This document shows positions 5,695 through 62,282 of a stretch of DNA of 64,000 nucleotides, in pieces; position 1 is the stretch's first letter, and every line of letters begins with the position of its first letter. The position numbers and the translations under genes are program-made. Below the pieces are notes generated by a model. It was not told the DNA's origin, made no database searches, and saw only the letters and a program-made list of their open reading frames with translations. The DNA is from Nitrospirota bacterium (GTDB lineage: Bacteria > Nitrospinota_A > UBA7883 > JACRGQ01): NCBI GenBank assembly GCA_024275955.1, contig JAJRYD010000036.1, forward strand, positions 1-64,000, written 5' to 3'.

Positions 5695-5825
5695 GGGACT
5701 GTTTCTGAAAAGAGTTTTTTTGAGCATCTCAAAGAAAAGTTTATTTTCTAGCTTCCGTAAAATAGAGATGTCAGAGATTGGCGATTTGTAGCGAAATCAA
5801 ATTTACGCGATTTGGCAACAGCCCC
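5695..5825 (+). repeat. Type-1 MITE-like repeat, copy 2 of 5
   Basis: GGGACTGTT...AACAGCCCC termini with the conserved core. Confidence 0.8.
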
Positions 5826-5951
5826 GAGCTGAACCTTCCCGAACCACCAAACAGTTTACAGCCACCAGCCGGATTCACATTTATGGCAACCGGCCCTCAT
5901 ACGCTTATCGAAACAGTTTGTGAAACAATAAGTCCAAAGAGCGTTAATCGT

Positions 5952-6243
5952 TAGCCGTCTCTCAAAAAGTTGTTTCATACTGCGAATAAAGGTTAATATC
6001 GGTTTTTAACTCTTTGGAAATCGCAAGAAGAATGAAGAAGTAACCAAAAACATAGTCATTAAACTCAAGGTTATTTGCAAGAACCTCCTCCTTAGCAAAG
6101 CGGAAAGAGGGGTCGCCCAAAGGGCGGGGGTGGTTCTTAGCCGGTAAGCCTTCCGGCATTCGACAGGCTCACGCCGCCTTCCCTTCTTAAAAAGGGAAAG
6201 GTTTTTATAATCGTTTAAACAGTAAATTTTTCAGGGACGACTA
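5952..6243 (+). repeat. Type-2 structured repeat (about 290 nt), copy A of 3
   Basis: tagccgtc.ctc.aaaaa...ttgtttcata...ctctttggaaatcgcaagaagaatgaa...ggtaagccttccggc.ttcgacaggctcacgcc...tttttcagggacgacta; imperfect terminal inverted repeat. Confidence 0.85.
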
Positions 6244-6278
6244 GTTAGGGTTTTGGGTAGGTGAGTTAGGTATGGCAG

Positions 6279-7514: not shown

Positions 7515-7643
7515 GGGATTGTTTTCCAAAGAGATTTTTGAGCATTTTAAGGGAAAGCTCACTTTCTCACTTCTTTAAAGTGGAGCTGTCCGAGATCGGC
7601 AATTTTCAGCAAGATCAAACTTATCGCATTTGCCAACAGCGCC
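7515..7643 (+). repeat. Type-1 MITE-like repeat, copy 3 of 5 (more diverged)
   Basis: GGGATTGTT...caacagcgcc termini; the core is recognisable. Confidence 0.65.
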
Positions 7644-9371: not shown

Positions 9372-10145
9372 TGGAGTGCATACTAACATGGCATATTTTA
9401 AAAATGAGAAATAAAACAACGAGAATTTGTAATTATTCGGTTTTTACTACAAAAATTGTAGCTCAGGTATATCGCAGATTAATGACCAGATGCAACTCAT
9501 TGTAAAAGCACAGCTTTCTAAAGTATCTATTTTGGTATCCAATTTGCAACAACTGTAGTTACCGGCGGGTAATGTTGCCGGGGTTTGGGGGCGATGGTTC
9601 GCCCACCATAAAAGCCTGTATGCCTCCACCGCTAGGCTGATAAAGCGAACCATGGTGTCATGACTGTTTACCCCCATAAATTTTTTGACACCGTCGCCCC
9701 CATCTTTTTTAATACTCCACCCTTCGTCACCTGCTTTAAATAAATTACAAAAAACTTTATGTTAGGGCTAAAGATTTTGTGGCTACAGTCCGATAAGGCA
9801 ACTAGGAAGGTATTTTTAGGTAAATTATGATTATAGTTGATTTGAGCGGAATGGGAAACGGTATAAGACCTATGTCCAGCTCCAGCCCTATGGGATCTGC
9901 CCAAGTGGCAGGGCGGCTGGAGAAAACTGGTGCCAACGTAGCACGTTCCGGCAGGGCTGTAGAGCGTTCTGTTTCCCAGATGAAGTCGCAGTATGCGCGT
10001 CCTTCCGGCAATTCGCGGATAGATATCAAAGCCTGAGTGAATCTGGCTTACTGTTTGCTCCGCGCTTGTTCCGGCTTTTTTCCGGTTCAGACCTACGAGG
10101 GATAGTCTTTTTAAGTTTTTTAAAGTAGCCGCGCGTGTCGGCTCT

Positions 10146-13854: not shown

Positions 13855-16800
13855 ATGCTGTTAAGCTGTCCCAAGTGTCGTAGCGGCTACGAAGTTGATA
13901 GTGAGTCAATTCCTAAGGAGGGTACTTACGCCCATTGCACTTCGTGCGAGAATATATTTTTTGTAAAGCACAAAACAACCTCTGGCACTAGCGAAGATAA
14001 GCCTCCCTCCGACAAGCCCGAGCCTTCCCAAACGCTCGGCGAAGAGGGCTCTTTTCCTGATTCTCACGATACCAGCGAAGGCGAAACAATAGCAAAATCC
14101 TTAGAGTCAGATTCGGACGATGGTGACGATTCGGATATTAATGATATCTCTACTAAAGCTTTCTTTTCTGAAGATATTGAAGATGACAAAGAAGATTTTA
14201 GCAGAACTCAGTCACTCTCTGCCCAAGCGGCCGAAGAGGCTTTGGGTGAAACCGAAAAATATATACTTGGAGAGAGAGGCGGTATAGAACCTGATGAGAG
14301 CCTTCAAGACGATACGGGGCAGGAGGAAGCAGAAGTTGAGTATCTTGAGAATGATGTTCTGCTGGAAGCCGATGACGACGATATCCTCATTAGCGATGGC
14401 GGAGATGACGGGCTAGAGGTTGACAGCAGTTTAGATTTTGGCGAAGGGGTAGATGTAGTAGATGAAAATGCGGGAGACGACGATTCTATCAAACTTCTCG
14501 ATTCCCAAATTGGTGAAATAGTACCCGAGGAGGTTTGGACAAAAGATTCTGCTAAAGCCGAACCTGACGACGATGTAATCTTAGAAAACTCCGACGATAA
14601 AATAGTCGAGACCATTCTGCAGGCCGATTCGGACCAGCCGGAGCCTGCCCAAACCGGCTCAGAAGTGTCAAGCTCCTCTGAATCCTCCTCAATGAAACCT
14701 GAGGCAATAAGGGACCCAAGCGATATTGATACTCTTTTCCTTGACGTGCAGGATGCTTTTGATGACGCGGATGAGGAGAACCCGGCCGCCTTAATAGAAA
14801 ACATGGACGATGTAGATGAAACTCCTCAAGAAAGTGTTGTGGAGGAAGAAACTGTTTTGGCTATCGCCCAAACTGTAGATGAAAGCGGGACGAAACAGGC
14901 CGAAGATGAAGCAGTTTCCACAGGTGATGGTTCACCGGCAGTTGAGACTGCCGGCAATAATACCGATAGCGAAGTAGATATCGAAGATATCGGCGCTGTA
15001 GCCGCGGATATTTCGGGTGAAATCGAAGTTGAGGACGGGTCGGAGGAGCTTGACACTAACGAACTGGAGTCAATTTTTGAGAGTGTAAATAACGCCGAAC
15101 CAGAGCCTGTTCCAGACGAATTGATAGATGAAATGCTTAGCGAAGATAAACAAGGTGGAGGTCTGCTCGACGAAATACTCGACGAAGGTTCTGCCGCCGA
15201 GGAGGGTAAAACTTTTGAGGTTCCAGAGCCAATAGATGACGAGGTCGACTCCAAGCTTTTCGGCATTAAGGGTAATGAGGGTACAAGTGTTCTTCCAGAA
15301 GATGCGATCGACTCTGTTCTTCAACATGCCGGTGACGGAAAAAGTGAAGATATCGAATCTGTCTTTGAACCGGGTTCCGATGAAGATGAAGATATTACAA
15401 GCTTTCTAGATGAAACTATGTCCGGCGAAGACGACGATGCGAACTTGCTGGATAGCGACATGGAAGCTATTTTTAGTGAAGGAGAGTTAGAGGCGGCTGT
15501 GCAAAAAGATGGCGTGGAAAAACCTCAAGCACCTGAAAAGCCCAAACCGAATCTTCAAGACGGCATAGATGCTCTTTTTGAGTCAAGCGTCAGTGGGCAG
15601 GAAACCGATGCCGAAAAAGAGGAAACGGTAGGCGACTTGGAGGCTATTGTAGATGCCGGAAGCGAAAAAGCTGTCGACGCGCAAAGCGAGATAGACGCTC
15701 TTTTCGAATCTTCGGCAAAGGAAGCTGAAAAATTACCTCAAGACGATCTCGAGGCATTTATTGACTCCGAGAGCAGTCTAAGCGAATCTTCCGTAGCGGA
15801 TGAAATACTAGGCGGCAATTCAGCTAAAGAGGAGCCTGCAAAAGAAGCGTCTGGTCAGGACGATATAGACGCGATATTTTCTGCCAACGCGCCAGAGGCA
15901 GAAGCGAAAGCAGATGATGGCGGTTCAGCCTCTGGTCAGGACGATATAGACGCGATATTTTCTGCCAACGCACCGGCGACAGAAGCGAAAGCAGATGATG
16001 GCGGTTCAGCCTCTGGTCAGGACGATATAGATGCGATACTTTCTGCCAACGCACCGGCGACAGAAGCGAAAGCAGATGATGGCGGTTCAGCCTCTGGTCA
16101 GGACGATATAGATGCGATATTTTCTGCCAACGCGCCAGAGGCAGAAGCGAAAGCAGATAATAGTGGTTCAGCGTCTGGTCAGGACGATATAGATGCGATA
16201 CTTTCTGCCAACGCGCCAGAGGCAGAAGCGAAAGCAGATGATAGTGGTTCAGCGTCTGGTCAGGACGATATAGACGCGATACTTTCTGCCAACGCACCAG
16301 AGGCAGAAGCGAAAGCAGATGGTAGTGGTTCAGCGTCTGGTCAGGACGATATAGACGCGATACTTTCTGCCAACGCGCCAGAGGCAAAAGCGAAAGCAGA
16401 TGATAGTGGTTCAGCCTCTGGTCAGGACGATATAGACGCGATACTTTCTGCCAACGCGCCAGAGGCAAAAGCGAAAGCAGACGAACCGCAGGAAGAGGCT
16501 CCTGCTGGAGATGGGTTAGTCTCTCAGGGCGATCTTGATGCTCTTTTTGCATCGGATGACCCTGCAGAGGAGAGTAGCTTGGCCGAAGATACCGCTGGAG
16601 CCGATGGTGCCGATTTAACAGAATCTGTAGGAATCGACACTGGTGATGAGCTGGAGGATCTTCTTTCTGAAACAGTCGATGTAGGTGCTGATGCTGGGTT
16701 GCCTGATGATGAAGCTGGTGTGTCAGTCTCTCAGGATGATCTTGATGCCCTGTTTGAATCCGAAGGTGGCGGGGATGCCGGTTCTAGTCAATCGGAAGAT

Positions 16801-17793
16801 GATGACCTTTTTAGCGAGGATGCCCAAGGGGACGGCGATATAGAATCTCTTATAGGTTCGGAAGCCGATACGGCGGATGAAGGTTCTGGCGAGGATGAGA
16901 GCATAGGCATAGATACTTCCATGCTGGAGTCGCTCGATGATGAACTGGGGGATGAAAAAGAGGCAGAATCTTCAGATGATGTTATGTCAGAAGAAGAGGC
17001 CGCCGCTTTGGTTGATCAAGGTGAAGATGGTGATGGAGAAGCTAAAAAGATAAGCTTCGGCACTCTTTTTTCTGGAAGCAGAAAAAAGAAAGCGGTGATG
17101 GCTGGTGTCGCTCTGTTGCTGGTAGCGCTTGGCGTAACTTTTTTCTACTACAAAGATACCTTTTTGCCTTCCGATAGCGAAGATATAGTTGCTCAAACAG
17201 GTGAGATAGTCGGCACCATAATTGAGCAGCCTGCTGTAATGGACGAACCTCTAGATGAGGCGGGGGAGGCTGTTGCCGAGAAACCAGCGGAATTTGCAGA
17301 AAGCGTTGAAGACGATTTTGCGGTTGTCGATGATGATTTTGTGGCTGTCGATGACGATGTAAAAGCGGAAGCGAAAGTAGCCCCCCAAAAGGAGGCAGGA
17401 AGAACAGCTCAAAAAAATGAGCAGGCAAAAGAGACCGCTTTTGCCCAGACTGGCAAAGCAGATGATGAGACTGTAGATTTTGCGGAAGGTAAAGATGTGA
17501 AGTTTGGGATAATAGTACCTGTCGATTACAATGCTCAGGCAGTTAGAGTAATGACAGCCGATGTAATGATAACCTTTAAAAGCTCGCAGGAGCGTGTTTC
17601 TGCCGAGAAGAAAAGGTTTTTATATGAAATGGCTATTGAAGACGAAATAGAAAAGTTTTTTCTGGAAAAATTTTATGAAGATACCCATTACGTTCAGGAC
17701 AAAATAATCGCCGACCTTAACAGCAAGTTTAAAAAGCGCCGCGATATGGGGAAAATTGCTGAAATAGATATTCAGAACTTCAAGCTTCGTTAA
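13855..17793 (+). CDS. 1312-aa hyper-acidic protein. It has an N-terminal MJ0042/AgmX-type zinc ribbon (CxxC-x19-CxxC), about 1000 aa of D/E-rich low complexity with 8x27-aa tandem repeats, one TM helix and a C-terminal globular domain
   Basis: CPKC-x19-CTSC at residues 5-31. The repeat unit is SGQDDIDAI[FL]SANAPEAEAKADDGGSA. The TM helix is VMAGVALLLVALGVTFFYY, and the C-terminal roughly 200 aa are non-acidic. Confidence 0.8.
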   Translation: MLLSCPKCRSGYEVDSESIPKEGTYAHCTSCENIFFVKHKTTSGTSEDKPPSDKPEPSQTLGEEGSFPDSHDTSEGETIAKSLESDSDDGDDSDINDISTKAFFSEDIEDDKEDFSRTQSLSAQAAEEALGETEKYILGERGGIEPDESLQDDTGQEEAEVEYLENDVLLEADDDDILISDGGDDGLEVDSSLDFGEGVDVVDENAGDDDSIKLLDSQIGEIVPEEVWTKDSAKAEPDDDVILENSDDKIVETILQADSDQPEPAQTGSEVSSSSESSSMKPEAIRDPSDIDTLFLDVQDAFDDADEENPAALIENMDDVDETPQESVVEEETVLAIAQTVDESGTKQAEDEAVSTGDGSPAVETAGNNTDSEVDIEDIGAVAADISGEIEVEDGSEELDTNELESIFESVNNAEPEPVPDELIDEMLSEDKQGGGLLDEILDEGSAAEEGKTFEVPEPIDDEVDSKLFGIKGNEGTSVLPEDAIDSVLQHAGDGKSEDIESVFEPGSDEDEDITSFLDETMSGEDDDANLLDSDMEAIFSEGELEAAVQKDGVEKPQAPEKPKPNLQDGIDALFESSVSGQETDAEKEETVGDLEAIVDAGSEKAVDAQSEIDALFESSAKEAEKLPQDDLEAFIDSESSLSESSVADEILGGNSAKEEPAKEASGQDDIDAIFSANAPEAEAKADDGGSASGQDDIDAIFSANAPATEAKADDGGSASGQDDIDAILSANAPATEAKADDGGSASGQDDIDAIFSANAPEAEAKADNSGSASGQDDIDAILSANAPEAEAKADDSGSASGQDDIDAILSANAPEAEAKADGSGSASGQDDIDAILSANAPEAKAKADDSGSASGQDDIDAILSANAPEAKAKADEPQEEAPAGDGLVSQGDLDALFASDDPAEESSLAEDTAGADGADLTESVGIDTGDELEDLLSETVDVGADAGLPDDEAGVSVSQDDLDALFESEGGGDAGSSQSEDDDLFSEDAQGDGDIESLIGSEADTADEGSGEDESIGIDTSMLESLDDELGDEKEAESSDDVMSEEEAAALVDQGEDGDGEAKKISFGTLFSGSRKKKAVMAGVALLLVALGVTFFYYKDTFLPSDSEDIVAQTGEIVGTIIEQPAVMDEPLDEAGEAVAEKPAEFAESVEDDFAVVDDDFVAVDDDVKAEAKVAPQKEAGRTAQKNEQAKETAFAQTGKADDETVDFAEGKDVKFGIIVPVDYNAQAVRVMTADVMITFKSSQERVSAEKKRFLYEMAIEDEIEKFFLEKFYEDTHYVQDKIIADLNSKFKKRRDMGKIAEIDIQNFKLR
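15850..16497 (+). repeat. Eight near-identical 81-nt tandem repeats inside the CDS
   Basis: Period of 81 nt (tctggtcaggacgatatagacgcgata...), varying at only a few positions. Confidence 0.9.
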
Positions 17794-17826
17794 TTCTTTA
17801 GAAATTTTCATACACTTTTTTGTATC

Positions 17827-18257
17827 TAGCCGTCCCTGAAAAAATTGTTTCATGCCTCAGACAAAGTTTAATATCGGTCTTAAACTCTTTGGAAATCGCA
17901 AGAAAAATGAAAAAGTAATCAAAAACATAGTTATTAAACTCAAGGTTATTTATAAAAATCTCCTCCTTAGCGAAGCGGAAGGAGGGGGAACTCGAAGGGC
18001 GGGGGGTGCTTCTTAGTCAGGTAAGCCTTCCGGCGTTCGACAGGCTCACGCCGTCTTCCCTTCTTAAAAAGGGAAAGATTTTTATAATCGCTTAAACAAT
18101 AAAGGGGCTGTTGCCGAATGGCATAAATTCGATTTTTCCACAAATCGCCAATCGCTAAAACCTCTCTTTTAAAGAAGTCAGAAAATAAACTTTTCTTTAA
18201 AACACTTAAAAACTCTTTTGGAAACAGTCCCATAAACAGCTTTTTCAGGGACGACTA
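17827..18257 (+). repeat. Type-2 structured repeat, copy B, carrying a nested type-1 element
   Basis: Termini are tagccgtccctgaaaaaa ... tttttcagggacgacta. The interior is about 90% identical to copy A. Confidence 0.85.
18104..18233 (-). repeat. Type-1 MITE-like repeat, copy 4 of 5, inserted inside type-2 copy B in inverted orientation
   Basis: The reverse complement gives gggactgtttccaaaagagttttt...ggcaacagcccc. Confidence 0.8.
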
Positions 18258-18354
18258 TTTAAGATTAAGTTCTTGGATTTCAGTTTCCATACACTTTTTT
18301 CTACCTAAGATTAAGTTCTTGAACTTTTGCGGCTTTGATGGGAGTATCTTATGA

Positions 18355-19020
18355 ATGCCGAAAATAATGATCGTTGATGATGACCCAAACATAGCATTAC
18401 TGCTGGAGCTTACCCTTAAAAAGGATTCTGGGTTTGAAGTGGTCAAGTTCATAAACGGTCAGGACGCTTTGGACAACATAGAAAAAGAGAAGCCAGATCT
18501 CATTTTACTTGACGTGATGATGCCGGGCTTAGACGGCTACGAAGTTTGTCGGCGTATTAAATCTTCAGAGAAGACTAGATATGTATCTGTCATAATTCTT
18601 TCCGCCAAAAGGGAGCTGGAAGACAAAATTAAAGGAATGAGCATCGGAGCCGATGATTACATAGTAAAACCGTTTAACCCTGAGGAATTGCTTGTAAGGG
18701 TGTATGTTCAGCTTCGGATGAGAAAGCTGGAAGTGGAGCTGGTCGACAAGAAAAAACTGGAAACCGTTCTTGCTATGTCTGTAACGATGCAACACGAAAT
18801 AAACAATCCGCTGGCTGGAATACAAGGCAATGCTGACCTGCTGAGAGATTGGCGCGACATGGAGGAAAGTGAAGTGGATGATCTGGTGAATATAATCCGT
18901 GAACAGACAAAAAGGATCAATGTGATAATGAAGGAGATGTCATCTGCTACAAAAGTGGCGGAAACGTCGTACCTCGGCTCTACCAAAATGATAAATTTAA
19001 AAAAATTAAAAGATGATTAG
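18355..19020 (+). CDS. Orphan receiver (REC) domain fused to a HisKA/DHp phosphoacceptor domain with no HATPase domain
   Basis: Canonical REC (IMIVDDD...LLDVMMPGLDG...ILSAK...IVKPF) followed by an H-box (MQHEINNPLAGIQGNADLL). The protein ends 60 aa later with no ATP-binding N/G boxes. Confidence 0.75.
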   Translation: MPKIMIVDDDPNIALLLELTLKKDSGFEVVKFINGQDALDNIEKEKPDLILLDVMMPGLDGYEVCRRIKSSEKTRYVSVIILSAKRELEDKIKGMSIGADDYIVKPFNPEELLVRVYVQLRMRKLEVELVDKKKLETVLAMSVTMQHEINNPLAGIQGNADLLRDWRDMEESEVDDLVNIIREQTKRINVIMKEMSSATKVAETSYLGSTKMINLKKLKDD

Positions 19021-19051
19021 GAAGAATAACCGGAGGTGGCGAGCCTGTAAA

Positions 19052-19345
19052 TAGTCGAAGCTGAGAAAGTTGTTTCATACTGCAAATAAAGCTTAATAGT
19101 CGGTTTTTAACTCTTTGGAAATCGCAAGAAGAATGAAAAAGTAAGCAAAAACATGGTTATTAAACTCAAGGTTATTTACAAAAATCCCCTTGCATAGCAT
19201 AAGGAGGGGCCACCCGAAGGGTGGGGGGGCTTCTTAGTCAGGTAAGCCTTCCGGCGTTCGACAGGCCCACGCCGTCTTCCCTTTTTAAAAAGGGAAAGGT
19301 TTTTATAATTGTTTAAACAATAAACAGCTTTTTCAGGGACAACTA
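19052..19345 (+). repeat. Type-2 structured repeat, copy C
   Basis: Same architecture as copies A and B, with compensatory substitutions in two hairpins. Confidence 0.85.
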
Positions 19346-19570
19346 AATAATTCCGTGTAACTGTCCGTTCCATTTTTTTCGATACCATATCGGCACACTC
19401 AATCATAAACCTGTTGAGCGCAGGTTTTTAGTTAGCCCTGCAATCAAATTGTGTAACTGTTTTTTTGCGGTAGCCGCTATCCGCGCTTGTAGCTAGCACC
19501 CTGCCGTAACGGTTAAGCTGTTTTTACACTATCCACCTTCCCAAAAAAATGAGCCGAAATCTGCAAACGC

Positions 19571-22253: not shown

Positions 22254-22295
22254 GGTTTTAACAAGCTTAATAGTCAACATTGTGGACGAATAAGC
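22254..22295 (+). repeat. Partial 5' end of a type-2 repeat
   Basis: agtcgaagctga...gtt..aagcttaatagtc matches the start of copy C. Confidence 0.5.
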
Positions 22296-22371
22296 TGAAA
22301 TTATAGCTGGCGGTAGATTTTTTAAGCCTAAACCTGCGGTGTGTCAGTTTGAGTTCCAGCGGCTTCCCCTC

Positions 22372-22502
22372 TTTTCTCAAAAGAGGGGACTTAAAGGGGT
22401 GTCGCCCCTTTTTAAGGGTAACCGTTCCGTCCAGCACTAGCGGGGGACAGCTCCCATCGCATTTCGCAAAGGTAAGAGAAAGATTACTGTAATTTTCAAG
22501 CG
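22372..22502 (+). repeat. Type-3 repeat, copy 2 of 2, preceded by two GC-rich hairpins
   Basis: Hairpins cccctcttttctcaaaagagggg and aggggtgtcgcccct, then the conserved ccgtcc...gcggggga...tcgcaaagg...actgtaatttt block. Confidence 0.6.
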
Positions 22503-22752
22503 GAGACACTACCCCTAGGTTACAGGTCTTTAGCCGTGAAGAATTTTCTTTTACAACCTTCCGGCATCTTCGTGGATGCTGTACCGATGATAGAGCCTTC
22601 GGTCGCCATTTTTAACTTGCAAGACCGATATTATATACAGCTTCTTATCCGTTTTTGAGCATAGGCGACGCAGGCTGTTTCTAAAAATATCACCCGGCTT
22701 CGTTTTTTTCTCATGCTGTTGACACCACTTGCCAAATCGGTAGAATGTAGAA

Positions 22753-42836: not shown

Positions 42837-42965
42837 GGGACTGTTTCCAAAAGAGTTTTTTGAGCATTTGAAGGAAAAGTTTATTTTCTAACTTCTTCTA
42901 AAATAGAGCGGCTAGAGGTTGGCAATTTGCGGCAAAACCAAGATTGTGTTATTCCGCGACAGCCC
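42837..42965 (+). repeat. Type-1 MITE-like repeat, copy 5 of 5
   Basis: gggactgtttccaaaagagttttttgagcatttgaagg...cgcgacagcccc. Confidence 0.8.
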
Positions 42966-42976
42966 CATGTAAGAAA

Positions 42977-61970: not shown

Positions 61971-62282
61971 GCTTTTCACCTAACTTCGTTAATCGCTTCT
62001 TTTGCCAGAGGTTCGTCGCTAAAACTTTTCTAAAGTCTTTTCACCAGCTTTAGCTTTGCGAGCGTGCTGTTAGGCTTATCGGGTCGTTGCCAGATAGCAT
62101 AAATTTGGCTTTGCTATAAATTGCCAATCTCTAATGGCTCTGTTTTTAAGAAGCTAGAAAACAAACTCCCCCTCCTTAAATGTTCAAAAAAACTCTTTTC
62201 AAAAACAGCTCTCTCACGGGAGGCGGCCGAGTGGAAAGGCCGGAAACATAACAGCATATTTCCGGCCGTAAAATTTAATGGT

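Follow-up and report, generated by a model that had tools for sequence, protein, structure and literature searches.

Which kind of sequence flanks the REC-HisKA response-regulator gene of this Nitrospinota-like chromosome, where repeats of about 290 nt lie on either side of the gene and on the same strand, and is its secondary structure kept by selection? In the window, i.e., the whole stretch of 64,000 nucleotides analysed here, the surroundings are those of an ordinary chromosome, carrying ddl, gatA, recN, the genes for NAD kinase, groEL, dnaN, mdh and tmk as well as the RNase P RNA. Based on the letters alone, a structured RNA or a MITE had been proposed. Our analysis speaks for the latter: the repeats, termed type-2 copies, are very probably gene-less MITEs, namely non-autonomous derivatives of an ISGlo4-like insertion sequence (IS) of the IS5 family. 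This reading draws on terminal inverted repeats (TIRs) held in common with IS5-family elements, on target duplications, a paralogous empty site, a distant homologue and the absence of any conserved reading frame. The type-2 element is a previously unnamed MITE family of a known type and represents common selfish DNA.

A nhmmer profile built from all three copies (A, B and C; Table 1) recovered each of them at E = 1e-97 to 1e-103 and gave no further full-length type-2 copy in the window, which, together with inspection of the sequence, confirms the three plus-strand copies described in the sequence-only reading. The 5′ fragment which had been proposed in addition scores below the nhmmer threshold and is nevertheless real, as two of its blocks (AGTCGAAGCTGA, AAGCTTAATAGTC), 12 and 13 nt long, are exact and feature the left-end variant bases of copy C. 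The pairwise identity of A, B and C amounts to 87.8–88.4%, each pair being about 12% diverged, and such equal values are expected from independent decay after an insertion burst. The ends are indeed imperfect inverted repeats, as suspected (TAGCCGTCCCTGAAAAA / TTTTTCAGGGACGACTA), with five matches of the TIR pattern in the window vs. 0.9 expected; the TIRs of A and B span 17–24 nt with one or two mismatches and the left TIR of copy C is degenerate (TAGTCGAAGCTGAGAAAG). The suggested size of about 290 nt applies to A and C and fails for B, which reaches 431 nt with a nested type-1 MITE. Without this insert, all copies measure 292–298 nt, i.e., less than the MITE limit of about 600 bp, and have no functional coding capacity.

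Table 1. Positions of the repeat copies, their duplications and neighbouring features in the window.
Feature	Position	Strand	Remarks
MITE copy A	5952-6243	+	292 nt
Copy A target duplication	TCGTTA 5948-5953 / TAGTTA 6242-6247		5/6 identical; element delimited G...C
MITE copy B	17827-18257	+	431 nt with nested insert, 298 nt without
Copy B target duplication	TATCTA 17823-17828 / TATTTA 18256-18261		5/6 identical
MITE copy C	19052-19345	+	294 nt
Copy C target duplication	TAAATA 19048-19053 and 19344-19349		perfect 6 bp; read from sequence
Type-2 remnant	22254-22295	+	degenerate, about 40 nt, C-type left end: AGTCGAAGCTGA ... AAGCTTAATAGTC
Uninterrupted paralogue of copy B target	18288-18323	+	CATACACTTTTTTC-TACCTA-AGATTAAGTTCTTGAA; internal empty site
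REC-HisKA response-regulator gene	18355-19020	+	Pfam; bracketed by copies B and C
Nested type-1 MITE in copy B	18104-18231	-	flanked by ATAAA at 18099-18103 and 18232-18236
Type-1 MITE copies	1533-1650, 5708-5825, 7526-7643, 42849-42966	+	
Type-1 MITE copies in opposite orientation	18104-18231 (within copy B), 62081-62167		
Terminator-like hairpin + T-run, copy A	6179-6208	+	consensus scan
Terminator-like hairpin + T-run, copy B	18056-18085	+	consensus scan
Terminator-like hairpin + T-run, copy C	19277-19306	+	consensus scan

The location of all three copies on one strand within 13.4 kb, and the ORFs of 65–88 aa which overlap each of them, could also be explained by local segmental duplications or by a small protein-coding gene family that is not mobile. 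We consider this extremely improbable. The copies occupy different intergenic sites with mutually unrelated flanks and every copy has its own target duplication; moreover, another genome contains a homologue at an unrelated site, and a known IS group has these TIRs. The ORFs follow one frame in B and C and a different one in A, none of them contains a Pfam domain, and a search among 5.8 billion proteins yielded no homologue of the ORF of copy C or of that of the distant element L063 described below. As judged from these comparisons, the short ORFs are spurious, frame-inconsistent repeat artefacts. They had been called spurious before, which stands, while the peptide said to be shared by all copies lies within the ORF only in B and C, as the 65-aa ORF of A runs in the other frame.

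The unusual length of copy B is due to the insertion of a second MITE family. The nested element of 128 nt is unrelated to the type-2 sequence and is accompanied by a 5-bp duplication (ATAAA); copy B minus the insert and one ATAAA is exactly copy C's AAACAATAAACAGC. The type-1 family to which it belongs comprises elements of about 121 nt with the TIR GGGACTGTTTCC/GGCAACAGCCCC and is represented by six copies in 64 kb, whose 5-bp duplications vary in sequence (GAGCT, ATGTA, AAAGT, ATAAA).

With the type-2 element delimited as G...C and six bases compared on each side, the target-site duplications that had been suggested as a check were found, reading TAAATA/TAAATA for copy C and agreeing at 5/6 positions for A and B. 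Copy B in addition provides an internal empty site, since an uninterrupted paralogue of its target is located 30 nt downstream of the copy, and the twin of this paralogue is cut by copy B exactly at the six bases into 17809–17828 and 18256–18277. The two form a 46-nt intergenic tandem duplication upstream of the REC-HisKA gene, with one unit split by B and one intact.

A hint to the origin of the family came from its termini. The type-2 TIR (TAGYCGTCCCTGAAAAA) is the TIR of full-length IS5-family insertion sequences of 1.4–1.6 kb from many phyla. A scan with TTTTTCAGGGACRRCTA, covering one genome per species, retrieved at least 120 loci, which among the matches listed belong to Planctomycetota, Cyanobacteria, Desulfobacterota, Nitrospinota, Pseudomonadota and other phyla. 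Among these listed matches, the TIR was often found near a contig end, at a distance of about 120 nt, as is usual for a repeat that breaks assemblies. An IS5-family transposase adjoins the TIR at at least 35 of the loci listed. At one of them (L028), two ends enclose an element of 1420 bp, whose 426-aa ORF matches NCBIfam NF033578 (IS5 family transposase; E = 4e-151) as well as Pfam DUF772 and DDE_Tnp_1. Annotated plasmids carry relatives of this transposase, among them one named “IS5-like element ISGlo4 family transposase” in Trichlorobacter lovleyi and one belonging to an IS5-family element in Leptospira interrogans. Both ISGlo4 itself (pGLOV01; L127, 358–1826) and the Leptospira plasmid IS (L128, 380–1842) are bounded by the type-2 TIR.

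The window elements have in common with the ISGlo4-like group the TIR TAGTCGTCCCTGAA(A/G)(A/C)A, the TA-rich TANNTA flanks and the 6-bp duplication. With about 290 bp compared to 1.42–1.58 kb, they are much shorter than the full-length ISs and, unlike these, encode no transposase. Their interior is likewise unrelated to every full-length IS5-family IS compared, as similarity to these ISs extends no further than about 35 nt from the termini and no parent-derived interior was detected; the true parent may lie outside the ISs compared. The search for an autonomous partner with matching TIRs, proposed in the sequence-only reading, was accordingly successful in part: IS5-family ISs of this kind exist in other genomes, and tblastn found no partner transposase in the 64-kb window. 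We infer that an ISGlo4-like transposase mobilises the copies in trans.

The same group of elements allowed a closer view on the target site. Among the matches listed, about 79% of 121 ends have TA at positions +3/+4, counted outward from the ...CTA terminus. The two bases between terminus and TA vary among copies of one IS within a genome (L058, L075, L081), which assigns them to the target sequence and not to the element. The 6-bp flanks were identical at 6/6 positions in 6 of 22 true pairs, compared to 6.5% of mismatched-pair controls, and at five or more positions in 13 of 22 vs. 29%. Plasmids of Leptospira interrogans differ in the presence of an ISGlo4-like element of the IS5 family. The filled site of NZ_CP092986.1 (L128, 27935–29397) reads TATTTA-[IS]-TATTTA, and the empty site of NZ_CP092168.1 (L131, 2494–3091), otherwise 99.7% identical to the filled one, features a single TATTTA. 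We therefore favour a target duplication of 6 bp with the consensus TANNTA, which would apply to the window copies and the ISGlo4-like ISs alike. An alternative option, which we favour less, is a duplication of only the two central bases (NN) with TA being part of the element ends; an element with TAAAAA on both sides whose left end reads AAG (L008), and another flanked by TAAAGA/TAATGA (L059), speak rather for six bases. Two further candidates were dismissed: a plain 2-bp TA duplication is ruled out by the Leptospira empty site, and a 4-bp YTAR duplication, the classic IS5 kind, by the flank base frequencies.

Short elements with the same TIR are also present in other genomes and phyla, with lengths of 168, 275, 283, 293 and 327 bp among the matches listed. 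The only one of these listed elements homologous to the window copies from end to end is a diverged, 283-bp element of a Nitrospinota MAG (L063, 3015–3297; nhmmer E = 3.7e-16), while a 168-bp MITE from Nitrospinaceae (L009) has only the left ~45 nt in common with them. In a metagenome collection, the conserved core 21-mer gave four chance matches only. The L063 element sits in the middle of a perfect 16+16-nt palindrome, GGGGACGCCATACTTA ... TAAGTATGGCGTCCCC (JBHHVT010000086.1; L063, 3003–3313), which does not fit the 6-bp duplication found elsewhere. Possible explanations would be an insertion into a hairpin or a palindrome lengthened by template switching.

How does the REC-HisKA gene relate to the two copies next to it? 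As had been noticed for what was then called the REC-DHp gene, B and C are direct repeats around it, and their distance, given as about 800 nt, is 794 nt. The best-named orthologues of the gene are from Nitrospinota; across this phylum, orthologues show 50–73% identity in varying contexts. REC-HisKA is a host gene and does not belong to the element. B and C could in principle form a composite transposon that moved the gene as a 1.5-kb unit, as REC-HisKA lies between an intact left TIR (17827) and an intact right TIR (19345) and its neighbours differ in every relative examined. This scenario appears very improbable to us, because B (TATCTA/TATTTA) and C (TAAATA/TAAATA) each have their own duplication, which marks them as separate insertions. 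Moreover, the outer flanks (TATCTA/TAAATA) match at 4/6 positions only, the copy B site has its own uninterrupted paralogue, and the order of genes around REC-HisKA varies across Nitrospinota generally, so that changed neighbours say little. In the three relatives examined, no type-2 MITE is present at the REC-HisKA orthologous loci, and as gene order is not conserved there, these loci do not provide an orthologous empty site. One related metagenome contig (JGI Ga0248673_100705; L125) has a 590-nt gap with two tiny ORFs upstream of the REC-HisKA orthologue (9411–10001), in which neither window MITE family is present.

As separate insertions, B and C could still matter for the gene between them. 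As read from the alignment, the pair has an exact run of 38 nt in common, and with this stretch a deletion of REC-HisKA by homologous recombination between B and C is plausible. The direct copies around this signalling gene would consequently represent a plausible substrate for its loss.

The hairpins within the copies raise the question of a role at the RNA level. A, B and C fold more stably than shuffled sequences on both strands (z-scores of -2.4 to -4.2), and all three of them (3/3) carry on the plus strand a predicted terminator-like hairpin, T, followed by TTTTTAT. Counting pairs across A, B and C in four local plus-strand hairpins (Ha, H4, H3, T), we observed that 95.8% of cells are paired and that in two pairs both bases have changed. 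In H3, the pair 165:175 reads G:C (A), A.C (B) and A:U (C), in line with the first compensatory change that had been reported, from cgccc/gggcg in A to caccc/gggtg in C, with the A.C of B as intermediate. The other double change is located in the terminator-like stem of A/B/C, where T 229:253 reads C:G (A), U:A (B) and U:G (C). A second compensatory change described before did not withstand inspection: the right arm in copy C still reads AAGGAGGGG, and the left arm alone has changed, with a 4-nt deletion.

Selection on secondary structure had been concluded from such changes, and our controls give no statistical support to this, although so small a set of sequences would not carry a firm negative. 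With three copies only, covariation values as high as those observed arise in 237 of 500 shuffles. Substitutions are not depleted in stem columns (10/64 vs. 51/235 elsewhere, P = 0.38), and in an alignment of the four sequences A, B, C and L063 the RNAalifold covariation term is unfavourable (+2.56). An assignment of the transcribed strand via G:U intermediates was also dismissed, as the stems contradict one another.

In principle, the copies could be MITEs with a functional RNA hairpin module, such as a mobile Rho-independent terminator, an RNA-stability cassette or a sRNA, whose structure is under selection; this option is compatible with a MITE origin and would add a function to it. In its favour, every copy has the plus-strand hairpin followed by TTTTTAT, folding z-scores range from -2.4 to -6.0, the two double changes among A, B and C each show an intermediate in the third copy, and copy B and the L063 element lie downstream of co-oriented ORFs. 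The most suggestive point comes from L063, in which overall similarity to the window copies is low, at least two hairpin pairs are changed on both sides and both hairpins are nevertheless kept at the matching positions with different sequence, namely a 10-bp hairpin at the H4 position (CCCCTCCTCG/CGAGGAGGGG) and a 12-bp hairpin with T6 at the T position (CCTCCCCTTGTG/CGCAAGGGGAGG). We regard the terminator-like hairpin kept there as a weak hint of function.

Against a selected RNA module stand, besides covariation within the shuffled controls, the undepleted stems and the RNAalifold term, several further observations. Wobble intermediates of T and H4 fit the plus strand and those of H2 the minus strand, the intermediate of the covarying H3 pair fits minus whereas another H3 change in B fits plus, and several substitutions merely break pairs. 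No Rfam family matches the copies at gathering thresholds or up to an E-value of 5, no promoter-like site was found within A, B or C, and L009 has the left end without the hairpin module. In addition, stable hairpins are typical of MITEs generally (PMC10969869, PMC3184786). Taken together, a functional RNA module under selection is unlikely, albeit not negligibly so. The more specific proposal that the GC-rich hairpin-terminator module is a host-useful terminator or RNA-stability cassette, spread by transposase and kept by selection across diverged Nitrospinota (window and L063), is to be regarded as quite unlikely. If true, it would mean that an IS5-type MITE hands ready-made 3′-end signals to genes.

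Repeats of comparable architecture are well known from other bacteria. The Correia elements (CREE) of Neisseria were the first bacterial MITE, and like the window copies they are short, TIR-bounded, intergenic and multi-copy with TA-associated ends, but unrelated in sequence and host phylum. They can affect neighbouring transcripts via promoters, an IHF site and RNase III cleavage (PMC10969869). These regulatory effects of Correia elements were shown experimentally, whereas the window copies are known from sequence alone and lack a promoter-like site. In Streptococcus pneumoniae, the RUP repeat is linked to an IS630-family element. RUP, SPRITE and BOX repeats of this species cluster and insert into one another, and SPRITE carries Rho-independent terminator-like sequences (PMC10969869). 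The mutual insertion resembles the type-1 MITE within copy B; the sequences of SPRITE, RUP and BOX are unrelated to the window copies, and the IS5-family link is specific to the window family. Nezha of cyanobacteria is IS630-related and generates a TA duplication. Nezha and Chunjie, the latter from Geobacter uraniireducens, are 130–235 bp long and mostly intergenic, with TIRs, direct repeats and a stable predicted RNA fold, Chunjie featuring 21-bp TIRs and 9-bp direct repeats (PMC3184786). As classic bacterial MITEs, both are comparable to the window copies in kind, although the latter differ from either in their TIR sequence and in duplicating 6 bp of the form TANNTA.

For the favoured MITE origin, the following course of events could be envisaged. 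A DDE transposase encoded elsewhere would recognise the TIRs of about 17–24 bp and insert the element at TA-rich sites of the consensus TANNTA, with six bases being duplicated. A, B and C represent old independent insertions into intergenic sites, each just downstream of a gene 3′ end, and a type-1 element later struck one of them (B). Cargo of the element are the GC-rich hairpins in its interior, among them the plus-strand hairpin with its T-run; when co-transcribed, they may act as terminator or RNA-stability element, a predicted role for which selection is not supported.

For annotation, it follows that repeat masking should cover the type-2 copies as well as the type-1 family and that the 65–88-aa ORFs should not be called as genes. 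With respect to genome evolution, a MITE family is now named in the poorly studied Nitrospinota and tied to a widely distributed IS5-family group, for which the filled and empty Leptospira sites document the 6-bp TANNTA target duplication. MITEs supplying promoters, RNase sites or sRNAs have already been documented (PMC10969869), and the general understanding of MITEs is unchanged by the type-2 family.

Apart from the two MITE families, the window contains further repeats. A third short repeat of 69 nt (75% identical) is found at 1694–1762 and 22446–22514, with one copy adjoining a type-1 MITE and the other the type-2 remnant, and hairpins such as CCCCTCTTTTCTCAAAAGAGGGG occur near it, at about 22366–22388. 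Moreover, eight tandem repeats of 81 nt (27 aa), 76–94% identical, are located at 15765–16631 inside a 1312-aa ORF (13855–17793), whose sole Pfam match is an N-terminal zinc ribbon.
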